Virus record (IMG/VR): IMGVR_UViG_3300009081_000009 | Coordinates: 64,001-128,000 of that record | Reading direction: 5' to 3' (one strand) | From: a virus | DNA: 64,000 nt | Part shown: piece by piece, positions 10,001-59,805 of the stretch | How positions within the stretch are numbered: the stretch's first letter is position 1 | Layout: each line of letters starts with the position of its first letter | The notes under the pieces: generated by a model | What the model was told of the DNA's origin: nothing | The model's input: only the letters and a program-made list of their open reading frames with translations | Databases searched by the model: none | Position numbers and translations under genes: made by a program

Positions 10001-10234
10001 GCTGATCTACAAGCTCAGTTGGAGTTGATTAAATCCGCTAACCCTGCTGGTTTGACCGCTGGTGTTGTTATATGCGATGAAACAAACAATACACCTGACA
10101 TCATTGATACAAATCAATTGATTGTTGATGTAGTGTTACAACCAACAAAAACTGCTGAGTTCATTACTCTTAGAACTACGGTTCAGAGAACGGGTGCAGA
10201 TCTTAAAATTACTAACACCATTGTGGGAGGATAA
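7016..10234 (+). CDS. Contractile tail sheath protein with large central insertion
   Basis: N-term APGVRIRLRDQS, C-term WLPPAG, INP, GQKT, RLNV, CDETNNTPDIID, AEFI (gp18-like). Confidence 0.95.
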   Translation: MAVYGQGAPGVRIRLRDQSEVSLVTNPNITAGIVGYSSKGEFNKIIDLTSTAEQDTYLGSGFNNAKFNQGLYAARAVINYGGFVEYVRPYGETTIADDDYNQDLKTDTFTVAFDFSDTATTSFDVKHMASTRYTEDGLQGLGSRKINTITETLANNTNVDFELSADAMTDAGSGTDKVMLFAIMNSDPTAAVRAGDRVAVIDITGSGTAATVTTGSIHGLSAGDSVIVAGTANYNGTYTIATIVDDVKFTFATTETTHETVGSIYSNSDTVNSGVDYLTVKTVASGKASKKYDRITLSTSTLMGVANATDTFTMETSTGADATFEFTLTGTPSLDTYYPITIVNDTFTTTYVATALTAIVVTDPAKYAVGDKIHVTSSLGLPTGLVAATIYTVSAIVGTSVSLNLSSTGAAVSMTTSCTDGVAINLTATLRSIVSAFANVGLANSSQATATATEITATTGIITLNASQASKFTVDDLVILDDYYANTGLRTALPTGLTAGTVYKVGTVDLINNTITLKDYTSGVLVAPSVTSTSGITYRLLNLTTGVVSATINSNSLSIDVIGKFGLTSPISVQETATSFFTFTDLATAFLASTVSMDDADHKIAGTDGYIVIDSDIGRQFLNLGLATEDYQDINFDGTEDRVYQLTAEGEVVAKMYVFVKYYFGGELYEFAGTLVEYAYGDTNLYLKNSAEDYENGWTLVMNDNASIEDAVENPNFSLANSISGGIITSSVTKVAFDETDPAILNDAIWTYLPKNNNSSNILASAWNLFLNKDEASADMLISAGTAISNLFVKNMEQINYTVMDTMLSICEKRKDLFAIFDGVDEPKITVALKKMIGIGSSGDLSRWGSLFDGRSIFSDTIYTKLNAQAVKSIEVAAIITANRASNVYWLPPAGFTTGKIPTGLAKRQKFIRTYNYADDINSDIARLYDANINPTRVNDQGQFIYGQKTMLKRMTALNRLNVIMLIAGIHKRFGNYLDTKVFQLNTAALRAGIQADLQAQLELIKSANPAGLTAGVVICDETNNTPDIIDTNQLIVDVVLQPTKTAEFITLRTTVQRTGADLKITNTIVGG

Positions 10235-10238
10235 TTAA

Positions 10239-10919
10239 ATGGCTGATTTTAGTAACCAAACCAAACTTTTCTATCTTAGTGGTGTTGATAACTTACGTGA
10301 TCCAGTTAGAAACACTCGCTGGAGAATGTTAATTCCATCTGAAATTTTTGCAGCCACTGGTATTCAAGTTACCAATGGTGCTCAATTCAATAATGGACAG
10401 GACGGAACTGATGAATTTGCATTACATGTAAAGTCATGTCAGATTCCTACCCTAAAAAATGAAAATAAATTTCATTGGTATATGGGATTTAAACAGGCAC
10501 ATGTAGTTAATACCGATATGTCTACTGAACAAGAATTCGAAACGATTCTGTTGGAAGATATGAGAGCGTATGAAGCTATGATTGCTTGGGAACAGGCTTG
10601 TCATAATACTGGTATTCTTGTTGATGGCTCCACTAATGATAGAATGAATCAAACTGGTATTCGACTAGGATTAGGTAATCATAAAGATATAGCTAATCCA
10701 ACATCTACTGTGGTTAGAAATAACACGGTTAAGATTGAGTTGTATAACTGGATGCGCGGTGATGTAATAATGAGACTTAATCTTATTAATGCATATCCAA
10801 GCGAAGTATCTGGATTCAGTCTTAATTATAATTCAGCCGATATAGTTAATTTCAAATTCAAACTATTCGCTGATAGATGGACGGTACAAATACCAGAAGG
10901 ATATACAACTGGTGTCTAA
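10239..10919 (+). CDS. Tail tube protein (gp19-like)
   Basis: Follows sheath; NAYPSEV...LNY...FKFKL pattern. Confidence 0.8.
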   Translation: MADFSNQTKLFYLSGVDNLRDPVRNTRWRMLIPSEIFAATGIQVTNGAQFNNGQDGTDEFALHVKSCQIPTLKNENKFHWYMGFKQAHVVNTDMSTEQEFETILLEDMRAYEAMIAWEQACHNTGILVDGSTNDRMNQTGIRLGLGNHKDIANPTSTVVRNNTVKIELYNWMRGDVIMRLNLINAYPSEVSGFSLNYNSADIVNFKFKLFADRWTVQIPEGYTTGV

Positions 10920-10921
10920 TT

Positions 10922-10949
10922 AAAAAAGGGTGATTTAATCACCCTTTTT
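10922..10949. terminator. Bidirectional intrinsic terminator
   Basis: AAAAAGGGTGA..TCACCCTTTTT between convergent genes. Confidence 0.85.
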
Positions 10950-10953
10950 CTTT

Positions 10954-11418
10954 TTACAATCCATATTTTGCTCTAACTTCTTCACGCTTTAAAATAACAT
11001 TAACACTATTGGCATAGTATTGTAATTGACTTACTGTGCGTTTTAGAAATTCTACATATGCATTCTGATCATCATATTCACGTTGTTTTGCACGTACACC
11101 TTCATGACCTTCTAATATAACATTAGTACCCTTTGAATCTATGTCATATGCTAATTTTGTTCGTTTGATGTCATCGTATGCGATTGCTTTAATTTTAGCC
11201 AAATCTTCGGCTATCTGATTTAATTTAAGTTGTTCCTGAAATTGAAGTCCGTTATAATTTGTATATATGTTTCCTGATGAGTAGGCAACATTGCGTTGAC
11301 ACTTATCAAGATCGACCTCCCCATCAGCATTAAATGCATTAAATGTGTTATTTATGTGATTTTTTAATTTTATTATATGTTCAGATGTAATTGATATAGG
11401 TATTTCGTCACTAGCCAT
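10954..11418 (-). CDS. UvsY-like recombination mediator (probable start at 11418)
   Basis: Helical protein of about 154 aa with UvsY-like C-terminus; upstream extension in the ORF track overlaps the divergent gene. Confidence 0.5.
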   Translation of the reverse strand: MASDEIPISITSEHIIKLKNHINNTFNAFNADGEVDLDKCQRNVAYSSGNIYTNYNGLQFQEQLKLNQIAEDLAKIKAIAYDDIKRTKLAYDIDSKGTNVILEGHEGVRAKQREYDDQNAYVEFLKRTVSQLQYYANSVNVILKREEVRAKYGL

Positions 11419-11489
11419 GATATTCCTCGTTTTTTTAATATAAATCAAATATATTATAAATATACTTAATAAACTATGGGTTATCATTA

Positions 11490-12041
11490 ATGGAAAAAGA
11501 TTATTCAGCATTTGAACGGCTTCTAGGATTACCAGCAGGATCAACAGCACAAGGAGAAGACGCACTACGTCCGTTACTGGCTGATGGAATAAAAAATAAA
11601 ACAACTGAATTAACTAAGAAAGCAAATCAACTCGAAGTTCTTGGTGATATGTCTAAAGCCGATTTGGTTAAGAGTGGATTTAATTTGGATAGTCTTGAAG
11701 AAGATAAAATTAGAATTCGGACTGAAACCTTTGAGGTGTATGCCATTGCTAGATCATTATTAGATGGTTATAAAACCCAAATGGATAGGGCAGTTAATCC
11801 AAATGATCGTATGTGGATGGCAGGTGCTAAGCTAGTAGATTCGGTCACTGGTAGCTTAGATAAACTGCTTACAATGACGATGAAATTCCGTCAGGAAGAA
11901 GAAATGAAGGGCATGACCTTGGTAGCTGATGAAGAAAAAACATCAAAGGAAATGACTCCTAAGAGTTGGTTGGAATTTGTCAAAGCCGTTAAAGATGCAA
12001 CCCCAGAAGAATTAGGTGAAGTAATAGAACATAAGGAATAA
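11490..12041 (+). CDS. Probable terminase small subunit (gp16-like)
   Basis: 'PNDRMWMAGAKLVDSV' resembles the gp16 'PR.EV...L' helix; late motif at 11468-11476. Confidence 0.5.
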   Translation: MEKDYSAFERLLGLPAGSTAQGEDALRPLLADGIKNKTTELTKKANQLEVLGDMSKADLVKSGFNLDSLEEDKIRIRTETFEVYAIARSLLDGYKTQMDRAVNPNDRMWMAGAKLVDSVTGSLDKLLTMTMKFRQEEEMKGMTLVADEEKTSKEMTPKSWLEFVKAVKDATPEELGEVIEHKE

Positions 12042-12082
12042 ATTATATATAAATTTTAATTAAATTATGTATATTTATACTC

Positions 12083-13201
12083 ATGGAAAGAATAGCACTT
12101 ATAGGTGATCCACATTTTGCTAGAAAAGCTGAGCATCCTTTAATAAAGAAACATATAAAGGATGGACAAGAGGCTTATTTTGATTTTGTTGTTAGTGAAC
12201 TAAACAAAAACAATATTAAAACAGTTCTTATAAGTGGGGATTTACATGATACTCGTCAATCAATTAATGTGGAAGCATTAGTATTGACGAAACGTTTACT
12301 ACAAACGAAAATGAAAGACTTTGATGTACATATCATATTAGGTAATCATGATATGTATTATGAGAACTCATATGATATCACTGCTCTTGAATTATTTGAA
12401 GATATCCCTAATGTAACTGTGTATAGAAATGAAGTGGAAATGAAAACCTTCTTAGGTAAAACATGGTATATGTTTCCTTGGATAATTCATGAACGAGAAA
12501 ATAGTACAGTAGAATTCTTAAAGAAATTGGCATCAAAGCCATTAAAGGATAGGAATAATACTGTTTTATTTGGTCATTTCGAGATGTTTGGTATAAATAT
12601 GGAAGGCAATAGCATGTCAACGTTTGGATTAGATCCAAATACGTTCATGGATGCATCAAATACCATATTTAGCGGTCATTATCATGGTAAATCAATAACA
12701 GAAAAATCAAGTAGTAAATTAGTATATCTTGGATCACCATATCCAATGACATTTGCAAATGCCAATCAGCAACATGGTATATGGTTGGTTGATGAAAATC
12801 TTAATACTGAATTTATTGAGAATAAAATATCACCTCGATTTGTTGATATATGGGATACCGATGACATGGATTTATTAGATGATTTAACAAATTGTTTTGT
12901 TAGATTATATATAAATAAAACAATAACATCAGAAAAAGAATTCGAAATTAGGTTGAAAATAGAAAATAAAAAACCTATTTTAATTAGAACACTGCCATAT
13001 AATGGTAGTAAAGCGGAAATAGAACAAAAAACCGAAGCTGAAAAGGAAGCAAATCGTATAATTAAAATGTCAACGTTAGATCTTGCTGAAATTTATATAG
13101 ATCAAAATTCAGAAATACTTCCTTCATTGAGATTATCGAACGATCCTAAAGCAGCTATAATGAGTAAACTAAACCTTTATAATGAAACAATCAAAACTTG
13201 A
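12083..13201 (+). CDS. Recombination nuclease (gp47/SbcD/Mre11 metallophosphoesterase)
   Basis: GDPHF, GDLHD, GNHD, GHFE, SGHYH, YLGSP motifs. Confidence 0.93.
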   Translation: MERIALIGDPHFARKAEHPLIKKHIKDGQEAYFDFVVSELNKNNIKTVLISGDLHDTRQSINVEALVLTKRLLQTKMKDFDVHIILGNHDMYYENSYDITALELFEDIPNVTVYRNEVEMKTFLGKTWYMFPWIIHERENSTVEFLKKLASKPLKDRNNTVLFGHFEMFGINMEGNSMSTFGLDPNTFMDASNTIFSGHYHGKSITEKSSSKLVYLGSPYPMTFANANQQHGIWLVDENLNTEFIENKISPRFVDIWDTDDMDLLDDLTNCFVRLYINKTITSEKEFEIRLKIENKKPILIRTLPYNGSKAEIEQKTEAEKEANRIIKMSTLDLAEIYIDQNSEILPSLRLSNDPKAAIMSKLNLYNETIKT

Positions 13202-16511: not shown

Positions 16512-18698
16512 ATGGCAATCGAAGATAAAGATATAAATGAGTTAAAAAAAGAGTTAGAAACTCTAGCTAAAAACGTATCATCTATAGGTGATTCGGTTCG
16601 TGTTGGTGTTCGGGAAGGGATTAAAGATGGAAATAGTGATTTAGCTAAAAAAACTCGTACAGAAAATGATGCTGATTTGGCTGAAAAAGCCCAATCACGT
16701 ATTATATTACGTCAAAAAGAAGATTTTGAAAAAACACGTGAAATGCAGAAATCATCTGTAAAAACACCAGAACAGATAACACAAGAAAAAGCAGCAAATG
16801 CTCAATTTAAAACTAATGAATATTTAGATCAATTAACAAAATTAATTAAAGATAACAATGAGACCTTAAATAAACCATCCAAATCAACTAAATCAACTGG
16901 TGATTCTATTGGTGATAGTGATAGAAAAAAGAAATCAGGCTCGGATTCATATATAACAAGTAGCGGAATGAAAGGTGAAGATCTAGTTGGAAAACTATTT
17001 AAAGGAATATCGGGAACATTCGAAGGAATTAAAGAAATTCCGGGTAATATGAAACGAAAAGCAGAGGGTGCTGCTGATTGGATTCATGGTATTGGTAGTG
17101 GCGAAGGCATAAAATCAAAAATATCCGGTGGTGTTGATTGGGTTAAAGATGTTACTGGTGGTCGTCAAGATAGTGCAGATAGACAAAAACAATTAGAAAT
17201 TACTAAGAACGAAATTAATAAAGAAAAAATGTTGTTATCAGCCGAAGAAGCTGAATTAGATAAATTAAAAAAACAACGTGGTAAGAACAGAGATAAAAAG
17301 GCTATTGAAGAATTAGATAACGCAATAGAAGAACGAAAATCTACGATAGCTGAGAAGGCAAAGGTATTAGGATCTTTAACATCGGAAGAGTATTTATATC
17401 AGAAAGGAAAACAAGATAAAAATTATAAATTAAAAGGACGTGAAAGGGATCTTGTTCTAAATCAGATGCGTGATAATGTTACTTCTAGCGTTACATCAGA
17501 TTTAGAAACTCCTAAAACAACGTCTACGCGAGGTGGTACTGGATCAGGTACTGGTATTGGTGGTATTGGATCTGAATCAATTATTTCTGGCTTAAATAAA
17601 TTAGAAAAATCCTTGAATGCTATTGAGAAAAATACAAAAACCAATACCCAAACAACTACATTAAATGCGTTGAGTAAAAGTCTTGCATCGCAACAATCCT
17701 TATTATCTCAATTAGATAAATCGGTTACTGCAATAGAATCTAAATCATCAGGTAAATTAAATGCTGATACTAAATTATCAAAGACTCCAACTCCTACTAC
17801 TTTTGGTGAATATGTAAGTGGTATATATAATGAATTGAAAAAATCAAATGAATTGAATGGTACTAAATCAAAATTAGCTGGTGTTGCTAGTGAGGCTGAT
17901 GAGGGTGGTGGTATTATGGGAATCATGGGTAAAATCCTCCCTGCGTTGGGTGGATTAGCTCCTATGATGGGATCTATAGCTGCTGCATTACCTGCAATTG
18001 CTGTGGCTGCTGGTGGTGCGTATTTATTAAAGAAAACCTATGATATGACTGAGCAAAGTACTGAAGGTACTACTGTGGGTGATGTGGGTGCTGGTATTGG
18101 AGGATTCGTATCTGGTAAAGGATTTAGTAAATCATTAGAAGATCGACAGGTTGATCGAGTAACTGCTATTCATAAAAAGGAAGGTGATAAAACTGTAGTT
18201 GAAGGTGCAAAAACACTATTCGATAGAGATCAAGCTCCTATTTTCGCACCATATAAGAAATATATGAGTGATGATGATTTGGCTGGATTAAAAGATAAAT
18301 ATATTGATTATAGAGTCGGTAATTCTACATATATACAATATAAAATTGATAGAAATAAATTATTGAAGCAAGCAAAGGAACAACAAGCTGGTGAAACGTC
18401 AGTTGATAGTGAATTCGCACAATTAACAGGTAAGTCAGCAAGTACTCCAACATCAAACAATCCAAGTACATCAGATAAGGGACAAGGCAGTCAACCAAAA
18501 GTTAATACACAAACATCAATGTCATCAATGGGTAGTTCCTCTGGTATGGATCAGTTAACTGCAATGACCATACAAGCAAAATTAATAGCAACCGAAATGC
18601 TTAACATGCAGAAAAACCCTGATTACATTAATCAACAGAAGGCATATATGAAAGAAAATGGTAAGCAGTTTGCTACATCTTTAGTGGGGAATGACTAA
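16512..18698 (+). CDS. Tape-measure/baseplate hub-like protein
   Basis: Coiled-coil, Gly/Ala-rich hydrophobic segment; late motif 16484-16492; tail operon context. Confidence 0.6.
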   Translation: MAIEDKDINELKKELETLAKNVSSIGDSVRVGVREGIKDGNSDLAKKTRTENDADLAEKAQSRIILRQKEDFEKTREMQKSSVKTPEQITQEKAANAQFKTNEYLDQLTKLIKDNNETLNKPSKSTKSTGDSIGDSDRKKKSGSDSYITSSGMKGEDLVGKLFKGISGTFEGIKEIPGNMKRKAEGAADWIHGIGSGEGIKSKISGGVDWVKDVTGGRQDSADRQKQLEITKNEINKEKMLLSAEEAELDKLKKQRGKNRDKKAIEELDNAIEERKSTIAEKAKVLGSLTSEEYLYQKGKQDKNYKLKGRERDLVLNQMRDNVTSSVTSDLETPKTTSTRGGTGSGTGIGGIGSESIISGLNKLEKSLNAIEKNTKTNTQTTTLNALSKSLASQQSLLSQLDKSVTAIESKSSGKLNADTKLSKTPTPTTFGEYVSGIYNELKKSNELNGTKSKLAGVASEADEGGGIMGIMGKILPALGGLAPMMGSIAAALPAIAVAAGGAYLLKKTYDMTEQSTEGTTVGDVGAGIGGFVSGKGFSKSLEDRQVDRVTAIHKKEGDKTVVEGAKTLFDRDQAPIFAPYKKYMSDDDLAGLKDKYIDYRVGNSTYIQYKIDRNKLLKQAKEQQAGETSVDSEFAQLTGKSASTPTSNNPSTSDKGQGSQPKVNTQTSMSSMGSSSGMDQLTAMTIQAKLIATEMLNMQKNPDYINQQKAYMKENGKQFATSLVGND

Positions 18699-36687: not shown

Positions 36688-37815
36688 TTATGTCTTTTCT
36701 ACGTATTGATCCCCAACTCTATCATATATTTTATCACCGATTTTAACTTCACCTGATAGACTGTCGGTTTGTTCTACTACAGTTTCAGTTGCAGGGAATT
36801 CTAAAATCTCAACAACATGACTAATGTGTTCCTGTTGGATACTCATATTAGATTTAACTGTAATACTCTCATTTGGATACTCCCAATTTTCTGGTAATGT
36901 ATCTGATTTAGTATTGATACTTTTATTTGATGCATCGCTTATAATAACAGATCCCATGCAATCTTTCTCGACCTCAACAGATCTACCAGTGTCAGGTATT
37001 GTTGAACGTATAGTATCATTTAAAGGTTTAGCTTCTTGAAGCATGGACTCAACTGTTGATAAATTACTTATAACATCGGCTACTTCATTACTATCGCGCT
37101 CTGCTTCTGTAGGTTCTTTAATGGCTTCAATTGGATCTGGTTTGGTTTCTTGTGGTGGTTCCTTTACCGGAGTTTTTTCCCATGGATATACATCTGGTGT
37201 TTTTGGTTTTATATTTAATCCCGGAACCTTTATACCATCTTCTGATGGTTCAAATGACATTCCATCAGGCAAGACATATTCATCATAATGTCCATGATTA
37301 ATTTTCTTTAATGGTATTTCAATTGGATTATTATATTTATCGACTCCCATGATTACACAACCGCCTAGCTCTTTATAGTGATTATGAATCTCTTCCTGCT
37401 TATATCGTTCAACGCAATTTTCTTTGTATGCGTTCTGTTCTATTCGCGTAACATATTTATTTATTAGTTTGTTTTTATGTCGTTTGGATCTAAGCCACAA
37501 ATAAATGCGCTCAGAAATAGGTGAACTTTTTTTGTATGCATTGAGTACATCAAACATAGTATCAATTTTAAGTGGTGCTGGATTTAATGTAAATGATGTA
37601 TCTGAATTAATTTTAAATTTTAATTTCTTTAATTCTTTGGCTAATTTACCTGTAAATTCCAGTTTTAAATCAATCTTTTCGCCTGATGGTGTTCTTATTG
37701 TTTTAATTGTTGATAAATTTCCGTCTGCATCAAGTCGTAATGCCGATACTGGTGTTGATTCGTGTTGTTTCCATATACCAAGTTCATCTGGTGCTAATCG
37801 CATATAAGTATCCAT
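36688..37815 (-). CDS. Hypothetical protein
   Basis: ORF track. Confidence 0.65.
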   Translation of the reverse strand: MDTYMRLAPDELGIWKQHESTPVSALRLDADGNLSTIKTIRTPSGEKIDLKLEFTGKLAKELKKLKFKINSDTSFTLNPAPLKIDTMFDVLNAYKKSSPISERIYLWLRSKRHKNKLINKYVTRIEQNAYKENCVERYKQEEIHNHYKELGGCVIMGVDKYNNPIEIPLKKINHGHYDEYVLPDGMSFEPSEDGIKVPGLNIKPKTPDVYPWEKTPVKEPPQETKPDPIEAIKEPTEAERDSNEVADVISNLSTVESMLQEAKPLNDTIRSTIPDTGRSVEVEKDCMGSVIISDASNKSINTKSDTLPENWEYPNESITVKSNMSIQQEHISHVVEILEFPATETVVEQTDSLSGEVKIGDKIYDRVGDQYVEKT

Positions 37816-37847
37816 ATTTAAATATGAGATAAATATACATTATTTTA

Positions 37848-37922
37848 TCCCGCTAGTTGGAATTCGAATCCAAATCACCGCATTCACAGTGCGGAGCACT
37901 AACCAATTATGCTACTACGGGG
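37848..37922 (-). tRNA. Atypical tRNA, anticodon GTG (His), bulged acceptor stem
   Basis: CCGCA-CTGTGAA-TGCGG arm, TTCGAAT loop; no G-1:C73. Confidence 0.55.
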
Positions 37923-37928
37923 ATGATA

Positions 37929-38003
37929 AGATGAAGGGGGGACTCGAACCCAACCAATGGGCAGTTTTGCAGACTGCTGCTTTACCAATTTAGCTACATC
38001 ATC
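37929..38003 (-). tRNA. tRNA-Cys(GCA)
   Basis: GCAGT-CTGCAAA-ACTGC; U73. Confidence 0.75.
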
Positions 38004-38007
38004 ATAG

Positions 38008-38107
38008 TGACGGAGGTGGGATTCGAACCAAATTCCCAAGGAGCGACCTCGGAATCACATCTTTCTGGATTAACTCCAGTTGCCTCTACCAATTGGGCTA
38101 CACCGAC
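38008..38107 (-). tRNA. tRNA-like element with 26-nt hairpin insertion in the T stem; anticodon undetermined
   Basis: D arm and T loop intact; anticodon loop AGTTAAT; two acceptor mismatches. Confidence 0.5.
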
Positions 38108-38114
38108 ATATTTA

Positions 38115-38205
38115 CGGAGATGGAAGGACTCGAACCCTCACGCCAGCATACGCCAGCCACTGTTTTCCAGACAGGATGCGTTACCAGTTACGCATTAACA
38201 TCTCC
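38115..38205 (-). tRNA. tRNA-Ser(GGA)
   Basis: CTGT-CTGGAAA-ACAG, long variable arm, G73. Confidence 0.85.
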
Positions 38206-38210
38206 ATTAG

Positions 38211-38294
38211 AAGAGAGTATGGGACTCGAACCCATAAGAGGCTTTCGCCTCGCAAGTTTAGCAAACTTGTGCCTTACCATTAGGCTAACTCTCC
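38211..38294 (-). tRNA. tRNA-Ser(GCT)
   Basis: CAAGT-TTGCTAA-ACTTG, long variable arm. Confidence 0.88.
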
Positions 38295-38298
38295 ATAG

Positions 38299-38381
38299 GG
38301 TGAAGAACGGGACTTGAACCCGCAAACCTTTCGGCACAGGAATCACAATCCTGCATGTTTACCAATTCCATCATCTTCACC
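38299..38381 (-). tRNA. tRNA-His(GTG) with long variable arm
   Basis: G-1:C73, CAGGA-TTGTGAT-TCCTG, variable arm GCCGAAAGGT. Confidence 0.85.
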
Positions 38382-38388
38382 ATGATTA

Positions 38389-38601
38389 TTAATTCGAAAT
38401 ATCAGTATTCAACACATCCATGTGATTACTAAAATATTTCTCAATCCATTCATACTTAAATTTCCAATAATTTACTTCACTTTGTAAGGCCGATAATTTG
38501 ATATTATCTGTTACAACAATTGGATCATTATCATTAGCATTGGATTTTGACATCTTTCTGCCTTCTTCTCTATATTCAGAACCCGTCTTTATTGGTTCCA
38601 T
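38389..38601 (-). CDS. Hypothetical protein inside tRNA array
   Basis: SD GGAGG. Confidence 0.65.
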   Translation of the reverse strand: MEPIKTGSEYREEGRKMSKSNANDNDPIVVTDNIKLSALQSEVNYWKFKYEWIEKYFSNHMDVLNTDISN

Positions 38602-38618
38602 TTTTCCTCCATTGATTA

Positions 38619-38692
38619 AGCTCTCGACAGGATTCGAACCTGCATATGACTGTTTTGCAGACAGTTGCCTTATCCATTTTGGCTACGAGAGC
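38619..38692 (-). tRNA. tRNA-Cys(GCA)
   Basis: ACTGT-CTGCAAA-ACAGT; U73. Confidence 0.9.
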
Positions 38693-38701
38693 ATGTTAAA
38701 G

Positions 38702-38878
38702 TTATTTATATTGTTTGTCTCTATAATGTTTCCAGTTGCGTTGGTAGTAATCACGGTGTCTATTACACCCACGATTAGCACCGCAACGTTCACATTTGAA
38801 ACTATATTGTAAAAGTCTACGATAAACATATGAGTTTGTTGTAGCTTTCATTTCCTGTTTTTCTATTGTTTTCTTCAT
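38702..38878 (-). CDS. Small basic Cys-rich protein (58 aa, not in ORF track)
   Basis: MKKTIEK...CERCGANRGCNRH...RNWKHYRDKQYK; SD AAGGA. Confidence 0.7.
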   Translation of the reverse strand: MKKTIEKQEMKATTNSYVYRRLLQYSFKCERCGANRGCNRHRDYYQRNWKHYRDKQYK

Positions 38879-38949
38879 GAATTAGATCCTTGTTAAAGTA
38901 CCTAATTCTCCATCGATGTATACATCATTAATCCTTGTTAAATTGTTAG

Positions 38950-39032
38950 CAGAAGATGAGGGACTCGAACCCCCAAGCCCTTTCGGACGACTGTTTAGTA
39001 GACAGCTACCTTACCAATTAGGTTAATCTTCC
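38950..39032 (-). tRNA. tRNA-Ser(ACT), A34
   Basis: GCTGT-CTACTAA-ACAGT, long variable arm, G73. Confidence 0.85.
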
Positions 39033-39150
39033 ATATAAAATTCGTCATCTATAACTTAACTTTATTAGTTAATGATCACTTACCAATAAAGCCTATACAT
39101 TAATGATCAGATGACTAATCAAACTTCTCGTTGTATATACTGCACAAAAA

Positions 39151-39222
39151 CAGGCTCACTAGGATTCGAACCCAGAACTTCGGATTTGGAGTCCAACCAT
39201 GTTACCGTTACACCATGAGCCT
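39151..39222 (-). tRNA. tRNA-Trp(CCA)
   Basis: TTGGA-CTCCAAA-TCCGA; A1:U72, G73. Confidence 0.9.
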
Positions 39223-39226
39223 ATAA

Positions 39227-39309
39227 AATTAATAGAAGGCTTCGAACCTTCATGCTTTCGCTCCGGGTCGTATACAACCCAGTATGTCTGCCAGTTCCAT
39301 CATATTAAT
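39227..39309 (-). tRNA. Atypical type II tRNA with enlarged anticodon loop (GTA-containing)
   Basis: All-AT acceptor stem, CTGGG-TTGTATACGA-CCCGG arm. Confidence 0.55.
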
Positions 39310-39310
39310 A

Positions 39311-39393
39311 TGCCTATGGGGAGACTTGAACTCCCACGCCATTGCTGGCAACAGCTTCTAAGGCTGCCGTGTCTACCATTCCACCACAGAGGC
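39311..39393 (-). tRNA. tRNA-Leu(TAG)
   Basis: GCAGC-CTTAGAA-GCTGT, long variable arm, A73. Confidence 0.9.
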
Positions 39394-39407
39394 TTAATTC
39401 TTACTTA

Positions 39408-39491
39408 TGCCGAGAGAGAGACTTGAACTCTCACGTCCTTACGGACACTGGCTTCTTAGACCAGCGTGTCTACCAGTTCCACCATCACGGC
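39408..39491 (-). tRNA. tRNA-Leu(AAG), A34
   Basis: CTGGT-CTAAGAA-GCCAG, long variable arm, A73. Confidence 0.88.
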
Positions 39492-39505
39492 TTATTTAAA
39501 GATTA

Positions 39506-39587
39506 CGGAAGCGGAGGGACTCGAACCCCCAAGCCCTTTCGGGCGGTAGTTTTCAAGACTACTGACTTACCATTAGCCTACGCTTCC
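39506..39587 (-). tRNA. tRNA-Ser(TGA)
   Basis: GTAGT-CTTGAAA-ACTAC, G73. Confidence 0.92.
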
Positions 39588-39592
39588 ATTAG

Positions 39593-39675
39593 TACCAGAA
39601 GTGGGACTTGAACCCACACGAGCTTACACCCAAGGGATTTTAAGTCCCCATCGTCTACCATTCCGACATTCTGGC
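39593..39675 (-). tRNA. tRNA-Leu(TAA)
   Basis: GGGGA-CTTAAAA-TCCCT. Confidence 0.92.
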
Positions 39676-39685
39676 TCACATATAC

Positions 39686-39713
39686 AATATAGAATTTTTC
39701 GCGAATTAGTCAA
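39686..39713 (-). promoter_or_regulatory. Internal promoter TTGACT-16-TATATT within tRNA array
   Basis: Matches the phage's recurrent promoter pattern; 10 nt upstream of tRNA-Leu(TAA). Confidence 0.6.
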
Positions 39714-39724
39714 TTATTTTTTAG

Positions 39725-39808
39725 TACCGAAGGTGGGATTCGAACCCACACGGGCACGAAGCCCAATGAATTTTAAGTTCACCGTGTCTACCATTCCACC
39801 ACATCGGC
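39725..39808 (-). tRNA. tRNA-Leu(TAA)
   Basis: GTGAA-CTTAAAA-TTCAT. Confidence 0.92.
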
Positions 39809-39815
39809 ATATTAA

Positions 39816-39898
39816 AGGAGGATAGAGGAATCGAACCCCTAACTTTTACATTACCACTGAGTTCGAATCAGATTGCACACCATTGTGCAGTATCCTCC
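39816..39898 (-). tRNA. tRNA-Ser(CGA)
   Basis: CTGA-TTCGAAC-TCAG; GGAGG acceptor. Confidence 0.75.
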
Positions 39899-39903
39899 AT
39901 TAG

Positions 39904-39986
39904 TACCGAAGGTGGGACTTGAACCCACACGCCCTTTCGGGCAATAGATTTTGAATCTACCGTGTCTACCATTCCACCACATCGGC
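39904..39986 (-). tRNA. tRNA-Leu(CAA)
   Basis: GTAGA-TTCAAAA-TCTAT. Confidence 0.93.
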
Positions 39987-40045
39987 ATAAAATACAACAC
40001 CAGATTAACAATCAGCGAACATCCGCTAGGGATAATTCTAAATAC

Positions 40046-40075
40046 AAAAAGGGCGAGAACCTTACGATCCTCGCC
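40046..40075 (-). terminator. Attenuator terminator upstream of Leu/Ser/Trp/Cys/His tRNA array
   Basis: GGCGAGGATC-GTAA-GGTTCTCGCC-CTTTTT. Confidence 0.85.
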
Positions 40076-40099
40076 TATAATGTAAACTTAACTATTAGT

Positions 40100-40174
40100 T
40101 TACATATATCGAGGATATTCAGGGCTGGAGAGCCATGAACATAAACTTGATAGATGCAAACTGAGAGACTTCAT
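40100..40174 (-). CDS. Putative attenuator leader peptide MKSLSLHLSSLCSWLSSPEYPRYM
   Basis: SD AAAGG; 15 consecutive Ser/Leu/His/Cys/Trp codons; lies between promoter and terminator. Confidence 0.85.
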   Translation of the reverse strand: MKSLSLHLSSLCSWLSSPEYPRYM

Positions 40175-40214
40175 TTTATTACCTTTAGTTAAGTAGTTTC
40201 GTTTCTTACTATAC

Positions 40215-40243
40215 AATATAGATCATTTTCTTGCATTTGTCAA
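40215..40243 (-). promoter_or_regulatory. Promoter TTGACA-17-TATATT for tRNA array 1
   Basis: Exact match to recurrent promoter. Confidence 0.85.
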
Positions 40244-42082
40244 TAACTTTTTTATTTCATCCCGTCTTTCTTGTTTAGACAGTTGATTTGGACGTGGTAT
40301 TTTTGCCTTATAGTCATTAGATTCTATAAAAACATCATTTTTAGATAGTAATTCATTGTATGGGTTAATAGAAGTCAATTTACCTATGTCAGGTCTGTCA
40401 TTGATTCTATGGGAGTATTTTTCCATTCGATGTCTAAGAAATTCTCTCATAGACATTCTTAATCTATTTTGTTCTAAATATCTAGGTTTGTCATCCAAGT
40501 ACACTAATGATAACTCGCCTTCAACGTAAGAACTTTTAGGAAATCCACCGCATGTTAAGCCACAATGATAAGCAACATCACCTAAATGCAAATCCTCCCA
40601 TCCATATTCACCATCGAATAGATTATTAAATAGAGTATTATGATTTATTTTTGTTATTACTTGTACAGCTTCTCGTCTAATTGCAAATCCGCATGTCCAT
40701 ACATGAGAATCAGCTAACCCATAATTTGGATTATATGTAAAATCATCTGAAAACCATTTACGTGGTTCAATTTCACCTTTTATTAATGTTATATCATATA
40801 GATGTAAAGCATTATATACAAGTTGTTCATTTATGTTTGATGGTATTCTATCTCCATCTAGAAATAATATATCAGAATATGGATCTGTGTGTTGTGCTCC
40901 TAAACTTCGTGCAGTACCAGCACAGAATCCGATCCCAATATCATTTTTTATATAATGTTCATTTAGGTCAGTTAATACAGATTCGCTATTATCCGTGCAT
41001 CTATCTAATACAAATATTCGTTTAAATGTAGGAAATGATTTCTTTAATGCATTTACCATTATATGTAATGTATTTTCTTGATTTTTGCTTATAATTACTA
41101 TATTAATTGGTTTAATATCTGTTGAAGGTCTAATCCTCGATGTCATGAATGGTGCTTGTGGTGCATCTTGTTTTGTTATATGTATTTTAGGTGGCGTATA
41201 CCACATATATTTATTCAATGGTGTTGTATTATCATCGGTTTGTGATAGTGATCTCGATTCACCTACATGAATGGCATCTGTGAAATTTTTAATGATTGAT
41301 ATTTTATTATTTTTATAACAATGCAATATATAACCACGCATCAAATCAAAAAATATAGGATTATTATGAGATTTAAATGCTTTAGCTAATGTCATCACCC
41401 AACTTTTATATTGAGTATATAAATTTTCATCGTATATTGAAGTAAATAATTCAGAATACATTTCATGTAATTCATCCAATGAATAGTCTTGTAATAATTT
41501 GTTTTTGTATAAAATATTAGACTTATTTATACCATGAATCAACTCGTTTTTGGTGTAGTTAATATCATCAATATATGATATTCCGTATATATCATTTAGA
41601 TCGGTAGTTATATTTAGATTTATACAAAATACACTGATATCTATATCGATTCCATTACTTCTAGTTATATCAGTAATTGCAATATCAGACTTATTAGCAT
41701 AACATGCATCGACTAATGATGTAACAAATGGCTTAGATATGATTACATCTTGTTCTATGTGAATCATGTAATCGTATCCAAGTTCTTTTAATGTTCTGTG
41801 TGCCATTGATAATGCGGATGCGTGTTCTATATTTGGTTTTATAAATATATTAGTCGCATTTTTTATACTTATCTGATGTAGTAATCTTATATCAGTCATA
41901 TCTAATACATTTTTTGAACTTCCATCGACATCCCACTTTTCCGAAAATGATGGATATGATATACTGTAAAATAAATCATATGTGTTTTCATGGGCATTAA
42001 TTGTGTTAATCCATGAATCAATCCATGTACCTTTGTTATTTGGTGTTACGTAAAATGGACAGAAAATTGCTACTTTTTTCAT
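40223..42082 (-). CDS. Two-domain glycosyltransferase (GT2)
   Basis: HIEQDV; VLDRCTDNS, FLDGDR, YGWED. Confidence 0.85.
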   Translation of the reverse strand: MKKVAIFCPFYVTPNNKGTWIDSWINTINAHENTYDLFYSISYPSFSEKWDVDGSSKNVLDMTDIRLLHQISIKNATNIFIKPNIEHASALSMAHRTLKELGYDYMIHIEQDVIISKPFVTSLVDACYANKSDIAITDITRSNGIDIDISVFCINLNITTDLNDIYGISYIDDINYTKNELIHGINKSNILYKNKLLQDYSLDELHEMYSELFTSIYDENLYTQYKSWVMTLAKAFKSHNNPIFFDLMRGYILHCYKNNKISIIKNFTDAIHVGESRSLSQTDDNTTPLNKYMWYTPPKIHITKQDAPQAPFMTSRIRPSTDIKPINIVIISKNQENTLHIMVNALKKSFPTFKRIFVLDRCTDNSESVLTDLNEHYIKNDIGIGFCAGTARSLGAQHTDPYSDILFLDGDRIPSNINEQLVYNALHLYDITLIKGEIEPRKWFSDDFTYNPNYGLADSHVWTCGFAIRREAVQVITKINHNTLFNNLFDGEYGWEDLHLGDVAYHCGLTCGGFPKSSYVEGELSLVYLDDKPRYLEQNRLRMSMREFLRHRMEKYSHRINDRPDIGKLTSINPYNELLSKNDVFIESNDYKAKIPRPNQLSKQERRDEIKKLLTNARK

Positions 42083-46590: not shown

Positions 46591-48306
46591 TTATCGTTTA
46601 AACATTACAGCACCTGTCATACCAGAGTCATCATCCTCATCCTCATCATCGGATTGGTTGCGTTTTTTAGTATGATCTAGATATCTAGCGGAATCTTCGA
46701 GCGTTTTTAACTGCTTCTGTTTATTATCCATAGCTTCAAACGCCAATCGTTCCTCGTTGATTTGCTCTTCTGTTTTAAGGATGACATCATCTTCTTCTAA
46801 TGATTTCAGATTCACTTCAACTACTTTACCATAATATAATGGAGATTGTAGATAAAATGGAACCCAATAGGCTGCTGTAATATGGTCATCATTATTACCA
46901 CCCAAACCACCCCAACGTTCTTGAGTAACTTTACCAAATGAATGCATCTCATTTATTGTCTGTCTATCTGGTATAGTCATAAACTTTCTTTGTACATATG
47001 TTTTAAATAGAATACAGGCATTTTGCTTAGTTTTTTCAGATGCCCATAATCCCATATGATGACCCGATGGATCAAAATGCAATATATTTTCATATTCAAC
47101 TTGATTATAGAAGAATTTCATAGCAGCAATTCCGGGGCCGTTTTGTTCAATAATTAATGCAGGGTCATGATATTTTTTTAATATTACATAACATTTTTTA
47201 CAAAACAAATCAATATCCATTTTATTAGATGCAATAACAGCAACCTGATGCACTGTTATATTTGATTTTACTAAGAATATTTGTAAGACAGAATTATCTT
47301 GATGCACACCATATCCAGAGTCTAATGATTCTACATATTCCCAACCTTCTGCCTCTAACTTTTCTTTTTTCAGTGGTGTTGAATAAATTCGTATGAAATC
47401 AGGTAAGTTAGCAATTTTCATTGGCTTCTTGCTTTCTAATGTTTTTAGGAAGTGATGGTCAATTAACGTAGATACGGAACCCACGAATTCACACATATAT
47501 TCCTGATTGAATCTGATTTCACCAATTTTTTTCATTTCATCACGTGCCCATTCAGCAGTTCTACCCGGAACTGCATTCCATGGTATTTCACTGCGAATAT
47601 AACCATTGGTGTCTTCTGCACTTATAGTACCAACATCTGATATATTACAAGCATCTTCCCACATTCTAAAGAAATGATTCATACCACATGGTGTTGATGT
47701 TATAATAACTTTGGTTGTTTTACCTGATGAAATGGTAGGGAACACAGAAGCAATAAACTCATCTGCTATATGTGATTTAACGAATGCAAATTCGTCAAGA
47801 TATAACAAGTTAATAGACATACCTCGAATACCATCAGGGGATGTAGCAGCACAAACGATTCGAGTTCCGTGTGAAAATTGTATGCCTCGTTTATTCCACT
47901 GTTTAACTCCCGGTTGCATCCAATATGGAAGGTTAATATATGAATCTCTTAACTGCTGTAATTGTTCCTGTGCTAGATTAAGTTTGTTTGCTAATATAGC
48001 TACTACTTTATCTTCATTAAATAATGCATACCACAATATAAATGCACGTGTAGTGGCTGATTTTCCTGCCTGACGTGGATATTTAACTATATTAAAACGG
48101 TTTTTATGAAATTCACCAATTAAATCTTCTTGGAAATTCCACATTTTAAATAATTGCATACCTTTATCTTTAGTATTGATATACACATAGTTTTTTATGA
48201 AATATATAGGATCTCTTGCACATTTAGCAAGTTCCTTAAACATCCAAGGCTCCATCTGAACCGATTCATTACCATCTCTTAAATTATTAATTCCATTAAA
48301 TGCCAT
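46591..48306 (-). CDS. Terminase large subunit (T4 gp17-like)
   Basis: PRQAGKS, LLYLDEFAF, ITSTPCG, nuclease LDSGYG..D, EQN, NDDH. Confidence 0.96.
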   Translation of the reverse strand: MAFNGINNLRDGNESVQMEPWMFKELAKCARDPIYFIKNYVYINTKDKGMQLFKMWNFQEDLIGEFHKNRFNIVKYPRQAGKSATTRAFILWYALFNEDKVVAILANKLNLAQEQLQQLRDSYINLPYWMQPGVKQWNKRGIQFSHGTRIVCAATSPDGIRGMSINLLYLDEFAFVKSHIADEFIASVFPTISSGKTTKVIITSTPCGMNHFFRMWEDACNISDVGTISAEDTNGYIRSEIPWNAVPGRTAEWARDEMKKIGEIRFNQEYMCEFVGSVSTLIDHHFLKTLESKKPMKIANLPDFIRIYSTPLKKEKLEAEGWEYVESLDSGYGVHQDNSVLQIFLVKSNITVHQVAVIASNKMDIDLFCKKCYVILKKYHDPALIIEQNGPGIAAMKFFYNQVEYENILHFDPSGHHMGLWASEKTKQNACILFKTYVQRKFMTIPDRQTINEMHSFGKVTQERWGGLGGNNDDHITAAYWVPFYLQSPLYYGKVVEVNLKSLEEDDVILKTEEQINEERLAFEAMDNKQKQLKTLEDSARYLDHTKKRNQSDDEDEDDDSGMTGAVMFKR

Positions 48307-56728: not shown

Positions 56729-56771
56729 AAAATTATTGACAAATTTACTAAAATGATCTATATTGTTATGT

Positions 56772-56858
56772 ATGAAGCAGATAAACACAAATATCATTAA
56801 CAGCATGGATACGGTTCTCGTATCTTCATTTGCTGCGCTTCCACCGAAAGGTGTATAA
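56772..56858 (+). CDS. Putative leader peptide MKQINTNIINSMDTVLVSSFAALPPKGV
   Basis: Starts 8 nt after the -10 of promoter 56736-56764; CCA-CCG codons; precedes two tRNA-Pro. Confidence 0.55.
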   Translation: MKQINTNIINSMDTVLVSSFAALPPKGV

Positions 56859-56891
56859 ATTTAATTTCACATATATAGTTTAAAAACGTAC

Positions 56892-59740: not shown

Positions 59741-59769
59741 TTGACAAATACTGTAAAATAACCTATATT
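59741..59769 (+). promoter_or_regulatory. Promoter TTGACA-17-TATATT for Asn/Arg/Glu tRNA array
   Basis: Exact match to recurrent promoter. Confidence 0.85.
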
Positions 59770-59805
59770 GTATATATAACAAAAACTTGAACTATGGAAT
59801 TTAAT

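Follow-up and report, generated by a model that had tools for sequence, protein, structure and literature searches.

What is a 24-codon open reading frame (ORF) doing between a promoter and an array of phage tRNA genes, when fifteen of its codons in a row specify only amino acids served by the tRNAs downstream, and when an intrinsic terminator stands between the ORF and the array? Whether phages keep tRNA genes for codon compensation, to replace host tRNAs that have been degraded or to escape tRNA-cleaving defences has been argued over for decades, and to our knowledge the control of their expression is almost unstudied.

The DNA analysed here (hereafter the window) is a stretch of 64,000 nucleotides, positions 64,001 to 128,000 of the IMG/VR virus record IMGVR_UViG_3300009081_000009. 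The genome encompassed 164,708 bp (33% GC) and 57 tRNA genes in five clusters. Judging by its tail sheath and family-B polymerase, it is that of a divergent T4-like myovirus; its terminase was 36% identical to cyanophage gp17, and no isolate had a terminase more than 36% identical to it. The sequence feature itself is real and conserved. We consider it likely to be a five-amino-acid leader-peptide attenuator, which would make transcription into the phage tRNA array dependent on demand and which would be partly bypassed by an internal promoter.

Layout of the leader and of its tRNA array

On the minus strand, the elements followed one another in the order expected of an attenuator (promoter, Shine-Dalgarno motif, 24-codon ORF, hairpins, terminator and tRNA array):

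40215..40243, minus strand: promoter P1, TTGACA (40243-40238), 17-nt spacer, TATATT (40220-40215); 11 of 12 consensus matches
40180..40185, minus strand: Shine-Dalgarno-like AAAGGT, 5 nt 5' of the ATG, read directly from the sequence
40100..40174, minus strand: leader ORF, ATG at 40174, 24 codons and a stop codon (40102-40100)
40124..40168, minus strand: putative regulatory run, codons 3-17 (Ser x7, Leu x5, His, Cys, Trp)
40146..40162, minus strand: region 1, candidate anti-antiterminator strand (codons 5-10), its partner being the stop-codon region 40113-40097
40115..40142, minus strand: hairpin within the ORF (codons 12-20), centred just 3' of the Trp codon
40110..40116, minus strand: antiterminator 5' strand AUCCUCG, 14 to 8 nt upstream of the stop codon
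40080..40105, minus strand: inner hairpin AUGUAAACU / AGUUUACAU, 9 bp, containing the stop codon and stacking under the antiterminator
40046..40075, minus strand: intrinsic terminator, 5' arm 40075-40066, GUAA loop, 3' arm 40061-40052, T-run
39724..39986, minus strand: tRNA-Leu(caa), tRNA-Ser(cga) and tRNA-Leu(taa), reached solely from P1 by way of the attenuator
39686..39713, minus strand: internal promoter P2, TTGACT, 16-nt spacer, TATATT; of the P1 class, without leader or terminator
37848..39675, minus strand: 13 distal genes (Leu x3, Ser x4, Trp, Cys x2, His x2, plus an ARAGORN call that could not be assigned)

P1 was of the sigma-70-type consensus and overlapped the stop codon of an upstream 619-aa glycosyltransferase-like ORF (Pfam GT2 match), itself preceded by a radical-SAM ORF; the transcript start from P1 was predicted near 40210-40207. 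The 619-aa protein gave no matches by tblastn and none in the viral-contig scan. The leader ORF read as the initial annotation had it, with all of codons 3-17 being Ser, Leu, His, Cys or Trp; for sensing, His, Cys and Trp had one codon apiece. Also as claimed there, AUCCUCG was fully complementary to the CGAGGAU of the terminator 5' arm, and the pairing enclosed the 9-bp stop-codon hairpin. This CGAGGAU (40073-40067), the 3' strand of the antiterminator, was contained in a GC-rich terminator stem of 10 bp, located 24 nt 3' of the stop codon of the leader ORF. The whole leader element was compact (about 170 nt). The first tRNA gene lay 60 nt past the terminator, opening an array that extended over 39986-37848, and no promoter was found between the terminator and this first gene.

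ARAGORN returned 16 genes on the array strand (Leu x5, Ser x5, His x2, Cys x2, Trp, plus one gene whose 4-base anticodon could not be assigned), and Rfam returned 15 tRNA genes. The composition given earlier for the array (Leu x5, Ser x5, Cys x2, His x2, Trp) was thus recovered, but not its total of 17 genes.

The amino-acid set of the leader coincided with that of the array (Ser, Leu, His, Cys and Trp), in agreement with the initial annotation. Across the six frames of the genome, no run of codons from this set was longer than its run of 15, the runner-up reaching 11, and the probability of a 15-residue run (p^15) was 1.2e-11 for a set frequency of 0.187 derived from proteome frequencies. Every one of the regulatory codons (15/15) was readable by tRNAs of the array. 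Leader codons reached 11 of the 12 distinct anticodons of the array, as did 14% of synonymous resamplings; the suggestion that synonymous codons were chosen to sample isoacceptors therefore did not reach significance (p=0.14), nor did it in the relatives (p=0.06, 0.48, 0.14, 0.95 and 0.60).

The internal promoter P2 sat between the third and fourth tRNA genes, and transcripts starting there would begin a few bases 5' of the next tRNA. The 13 distal genes, with small ORFs interspersed among them, could be reached in two ways, by read-through from P1 or from P2. On the basis of this promoter layout, the predicted switch at P1 alone controls, and would exclusively gate, only Leu(caa), Ser(cga) and Leu(taa) in this phage, while for the other 13 genes it would add to P2 as a constitutive promoter. 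An attenuator gating the whole array, as first imagined, did not hold in this phage because P2 bypasses the switch for 13 of the 16 genes, so that leader control of the His, Cys and Trp tRNAs could only be partial here. P2 was conserved in the window's own lineage (contigs L008 and L073), where in L008 it followed an inserted HNH endonuclease gene. No P2-like promoter was found in the relatives L002 and L009, and the whole array lay behind the leader there.

The array displayed several features of its own. The ARAGORN call at 39227-39309 (minus strand) had a long variable arm, an 8-nt anticodon loop and the four-base anticodon 'tata', and it matched no Rfam tRNA model even at E<=1. Between tRNA-Ser(gga) and tRNA-Cys, a 110-nt gap (38004-38113, minus strand) contained a T-arm-like GGTTCGAATCC and other tRNA-like segments, with no ARAGORN or Rfam call; this gap may be the 17th gene of the initial annotation, or a decayed tRNA. 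Both tRNA-Ser(act) and tRNA-Leu(aag) (38949-39032 and 39408-39491, minus strand) carried an A in position 34 of the anticodon, which is seldom seen in tRNAs other than tRNA-Arg(acg), and Ser(act) was also found in L008. An 8-codon mini-ORF (type M-x-Y-T-S/A-M-E-x) that has a Shine-Dalgarno motif to itself (38902-38928, minus strand) was conserved (compare L009, ~17530-17560 and 18370-18410); mini-ORFs of this type stood immediately 5' of small basic Cys-rich ORFs within tRNA arrays, here the ORF at 38702-38878. Also within the array, a 70-aa ORF (38389-38601, minus strand) carried a KMSKS motif, with a KMSKS homologue in L009, and its Pfam match to the KMSKS region of class I aminoacyl-tRNA synthetases fell short of the cut-off (E=0.004).

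Homologous leaders in relatives and sister leaders in the genome

Relatives were retrieved from IMG/VR via terminase synteny (terminase identity of 64-80%) and carried a homologous Leu/Ser/His/Trp/Cys array. A pattern scan of metagenome contigs supplied two additional leader homologues. Homologues occurred only beside tRNA arrays, and the remaining ones of the 60 pattern-scan matches were discarded as chance matches inside unrelated ORFs. The comparative sample encompassed six sequences from three lineages. Among cultured phages no close relatives were found, blastn with the region matching tRNA genes only.

Conservation of the peptide in related phages had been set as a check on the attenuator, and both the frame and the core of the leader were kept in the six homologous contigs (L008, L040, L073, L002, L003 and L009), along with its start and stop codons. 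Homologues displayed a promoter, a Shine-Dalgarno-like motif and an ORF of 23-27 codons, followed by a terminator and tRNAs. Promoters homologous to P1 were located upstream of the leader in L008, L073 and L002, and purine-rich Shine-Dalgarno-like motifs were at the same position in all homologues; 5'UTRs and spacers were barely alignable. In these ORFs a shared core, SLHLSSLC, was followed by codons for Ser, Trp and Leu. All variable columns of this 8-codon core were third codon positions (columns 6, 12, 15 and 21 of alignment A1), in sequences that had been found independently of the codon pattern. Change restricted to third positions points to translation of the ORF and to selection on its amino-acid (codon-family) identity. 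In the 3' part of the ORF, the frame differed between L002 and L009 and the RNA segment AGGUUC was kept, which suggests a constraint at the RNA level rather than at the peptide level.

In L002, L003 and L004 at 10001-12482, the terminase match spanned 2,482 nt for 571 aa, and the terminase gene of the window measured 1,716 nt (46591-48306). Going by these lengths, the gene of the relatives is probably interrupted by an intron, an intein or some other insertion.

The arrangement was repeated within the genome, where eight leaders preceded eight tRNA blocks, the Ser/Leu/His/Cys/Trp leader included. The seven further leaders were for Tyr/Met, Lys, Gln (six consecutive Gln codons), Pro, Asn/Arg and Glu, with one eight-amino-acid leader that preceded 19 tRNA genes. 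Most of them had the same promoter type and a terminator; no terminator was found for the Pro leader, and the antiterminator of the Gln leader was only weak. When every leader was scored against every block, the true leader-to-block pairing outscored every other one of the 40,320 permutations. The genome contained 19 strict matches to the promoter consensus, P1 among them, against about 2 expected. A strong hairpin with a T-run was found at most 260 nt downstream of 5 of the 7 tRNA promoters (the T-run of the fifth being interrupted) against 0 of the 12 other consensus promoters. Three of the leaders were located as follows:

59741-59928, plus strand: Asn/Arg leader, four Asn codons then Glu-Arg(AGA)-Glu; precedes Asn x3 and Arg(tct)
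60298-60415, plus strand: Glu leader, Glu-rich (EREEER); precedes Glu x4
56736-56891, plus strand: Pro leader, a promoter and a 17-codon ORF ending Pro-Pro-Lys-Gly-Val; two tRNA-Pro genes follow

A 131-kb relative (terminase 76% identical) kept the Asn/Arg/Glu, Glu (EREEER), Lys and poly-Gln leaders before the corresponding tRNAs.

Some of these loci showed particularities. The terminator arm of the Glu leader was paired to the Glu codons in the minimum free energy (MFE) fold, and a perfect 8-nt antiterminator strand, UGAACAUG, overlapped the stop codon. In L002, the Pro-Pro pair near the end of the Pro-leader ORF was kept, one Pro codon being CCC and one tRNA being Pro(ggg). Outside the window, at genome positions 18551-18671 (minus strand), a short ORF with three Phe codons ran directly into tRNA-Phe; it ended in Phe-Phe-Ile over a T-run, without a hairpin terminator, and its peptide was conserved in the relative G001 (compare L088, 917-1047).

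Folding and covariation of the leader RNA

In trpL, hisL, pheL and leuL of enterobacteria, a promoter-proximal short ORF with codons for the controlled amino acid is followed by an intrinsic terminator. The antiterminator of such classical attenuators shares a strand with the terminator, a region 1 within the regulatory codons pairs with a region 2 near the stop codon, and the terminating ribosome masks region 2. The layout of promoter, ORF, terminator and shared strand in the phage leader was alike.

Equilibrium folds of the full leader formed the terminator in every ribosome state and displayed no switch, so any switch must be kinetic, as in trp. A transcript cut just 5' of the terminator 3' arm folded into the antiterminator AUCCUCG:CGAGGAU stacked on the stop-codon hairpin, and the energies of the isolated structures were -19.5 kcal/mol for the antiterminator and -17.0 kcal/mol for the terminator. 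When the cut transcript was folded under ribosome-footprint constraints, the antiterminator formed with the ribosome absent or with its A site at codons 4-16, and was absent with the ribosome at codon 17 or further, or at the stop codon. The antiterminators of L008, L073 and L003 responded to ribosome position in the same way. The switch sketched in the initial annotation, where a ribosome at the stop codon frees the terminator and one stalled upstream spares the antiterminator, was therefore reproduced by the constrained folds of the cut transcript but not by the equilibrium folds, in which the terminator always formed.

Both helices were supported by covariation in alignment A1. The antiterminator helix was 88.9% paired in a single register across the three lineages (42-53% in slid-partner controls), and the terminator helix was 93.3% paired (45-58% in slid controls), with 4 pairs changed on both sides in each helix. 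Columns 105 and 107, which belong to the strand shared by the two helices, changed between lineages and both partners followed, as is predicted for two mutually exclusive functional helices. Duplexes between cognate leaders and terminators reached -11 to -16 kcal/mol, against -5 to -9 kcal/mol for cross-lineage combinations. The inner stop-codon hairpin was kept with compensatory changes in L008 and L073.

In 6 of 7 leaders of the genome, the footprint of the terminating ribosome contained a stretch of 6-8 nt perfectly complementary to the terminator arm (Fisher combined p=2.6e-5). For the leader studied here, the 7-nt complement at -14 to -8 from the stop codon gave a shuffle p of 0.021. The narrow window behind both p values was settled on once the data were known, and a wide-window duplex shuffle of the leader 3' part against the terminator arm gave p=0.30 for this leader alone.

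A further candidate helix, region 1:2, would join codons 5-10 to the stop-codon region and enclose the conserved hairpin of codons 12-20. In co-transcriptional folds of a nascent chain carrying no ribosome, it formed before any other structure; it was isoenergetic with the antiterminator once the terminator 5' arm was out (-33.8 versus -33.9), and the full-length MFE fold contained both region 1:2 and the terminator. In the six sequences, 87% of its cells were paired against 22-57% in slid controls, and no compensatory changes were found. The hairpin of codons 12-20 was in the same place in 6 of 6 homologues with differing stems (GGCU/AGCC versus GGUC/GACC); it may act as an RNA polymerase pause hairpin. 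As modelled, the four-strand design looks like a classic trp-type attenuator, and a more complete one than the initial annotation described.

Proposed mechanism, rival readings and known attenuators

Codon match, coding-type conservation, covariation of the shared strand and an antiterminator 8-14 nt before the stop codon all agreed with the attenuator reading. The sequence parts, their conservation and their covariation were obtained by computation; from them, we infer translation of the ORF, the direction of the switch and its physiological signal. RNA polymerase would start at P1 and a ribosome would load on the 24-codon ORF. If the 15 codons were decoded fast, the ribosome at the stop codon would cover AUCCUCG and the stop-codon hairpin, the terminator would fold and transcription would end at about 40046. 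A ribosome slowed on any Ser, Leu, His, Cys or Trp codon would mask region 1 (codons 5-10) and leave the antiterminator strand free, so that AUCCUCG could pair with CGAGGAU before the terminator 3' arm is made, giving read-through into the tRNA genes. With no ribosome, region 1 would pair first with the stop region and the terminator would form. As the products are tRNAs that decode the test codons, the circuit would be a negative feedback on decoding capacity, and the phage probably makes more of these tRNAs from P1 only when ribosomes read the matching codons slowly.

Among other readings, we find unlikely a fixed leaky terminator at which the upstream glycosyltransferase/radical-SAM operon would end as well, with the short ORF translated but switching nothing and its codon content serving, for example, precursor processing or stability via ribosomes, or tRNA titration. 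The terminator does form in every equilibrium fold and lies about 150 nt past the stop codon of the upstream gene, and P2 shows that most of the array can be expressed without the leader. A fixed element would nevertheless leave unexplained that the strand shared by the two helices covaries with both partners, that an antiterminator strand lies beside the stop codon in 6 of 7 leaders, and that promoter-proximal terminators occur at tRNA promoters only; moreover, P1 firing straight into a terminator would be pointless unless read-through were regulated. A switch of reversed polarity appears improbable to a further degree. In such a pyrBI-type coupling, efficient translation would give read-through and stalling would give termination, the tRNAs being made only when translation runs well. 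One alternative antiterminator strand of the Glu leader overlaps the Glu codons in line with this polarity, but the perfect 8-nt strand over the stop codon of the same leader fits the classical one; in the leader studied here, the 24 nt between the stop codon and the terminator stem are too many for a terminating ribosome to mask the stem, and what such a ribosome covers is the antiterminator strand rather than the terminator.

We give very little credence to a functional micropeptide (e.g., a small hydrophobic one) whose likeness to the tRNA set would be incidental. The conservation of the core at the amino-acid level, with synonymous changes, is what a functional peptide would show; however, the peptides of the eight leaders are unrelated and yet every leader matches the tRNA block that it precedes, and the C-terminal frame differs between L002 and L009 where AGGUUC is kept as RNA. 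Although short ORFs are plentiful in AT-rich DNA, a functionless chance ORF beside an ordinary terminator is the reading we hold least probable, given the most extreme run in the genome, the in-frame conservation in divergent relatives and the seven replicate sites; the conservation data already contradict it.

The attenuator reading places the element beside well-known systems, from which it differs in what it would control and in how much it would sense. Classical amino-acid attenuators regulate biosynthetic enzymes, whereas here phage tRNA genes would be regulated, the output feeding directly on decoding; five amino acids would be sensed, with no long tandem run of any one. Mixed codons in one leader, with any shortage relieving termination, are shared with thrL (Thr, Ile) and with ilvL and ivbL (Ile, Leu, Val). 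Those leaders sample two or three metabolically linked amino acids, whereas the five sampled here are linked only by a shared tRNA block and a sister leader in the same genome samples eight. Attenuation of components of the translation apparatus in response to cognate tRNA status is likewise found in pheM (pheST) and in T-box elements, but pheM controls a synthetase while the phage leader precedes tRNA genes, and T-box riboswitches bind uncharged tRNA directly without a leader ORF, which the phage element has. Only tRNA matches were obtained with Rfam at the gathering score in the window, and no Rfam leader or T-box family matched at E<=1 in 37800-40300.

In the cultured phages T5 and phi92, the best-annotated cases among those compared, tRNA genes are likewise clustered, and promoters, small ORFs and genes for HNH endonucleases lie between them. 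The small ORFs there, however, show no enrichment for amino acids that the tRNAs behind them serve, and they are not followed by terminators, so that these well-studied phages lack the system. The T5 tRNA region, considered for attenuator-like short ORFs, was rejected on its annotated record, and phi92 likewise. A full-text literature search returned no description of attenuators controlling tRNA genes. By its sequence organisation, the element is most likely leader-peptide attenuation extended to tRNA genes, for which no published precedent was found in that search.

If the attenuator reading is true, leader-peptide attenuation extends to tRNA genes, with five amino acids per leader here and eight elsewhere in the genome, and elements of about 170 nt could serve as codon-specific reporters of translation speed. 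The phage would measure its decoding capacity for the codons served by the downstream tRNAs and top it up by feedback, and the debate on phage tRNA genes would become directly testable by asking which shortage opens which switch. Decoding could drop through a mismatch between host tRNAs and phage codons, through phage-induced decay of host tRNAs or through host anticodon-nuclease defences. More tentatively, large phages might possess a modular, on-demand tRNA supply in which each block is switched on by a codon-matched test ORF when decoding drops, and in which the leaders would act as counter-defence sensors.
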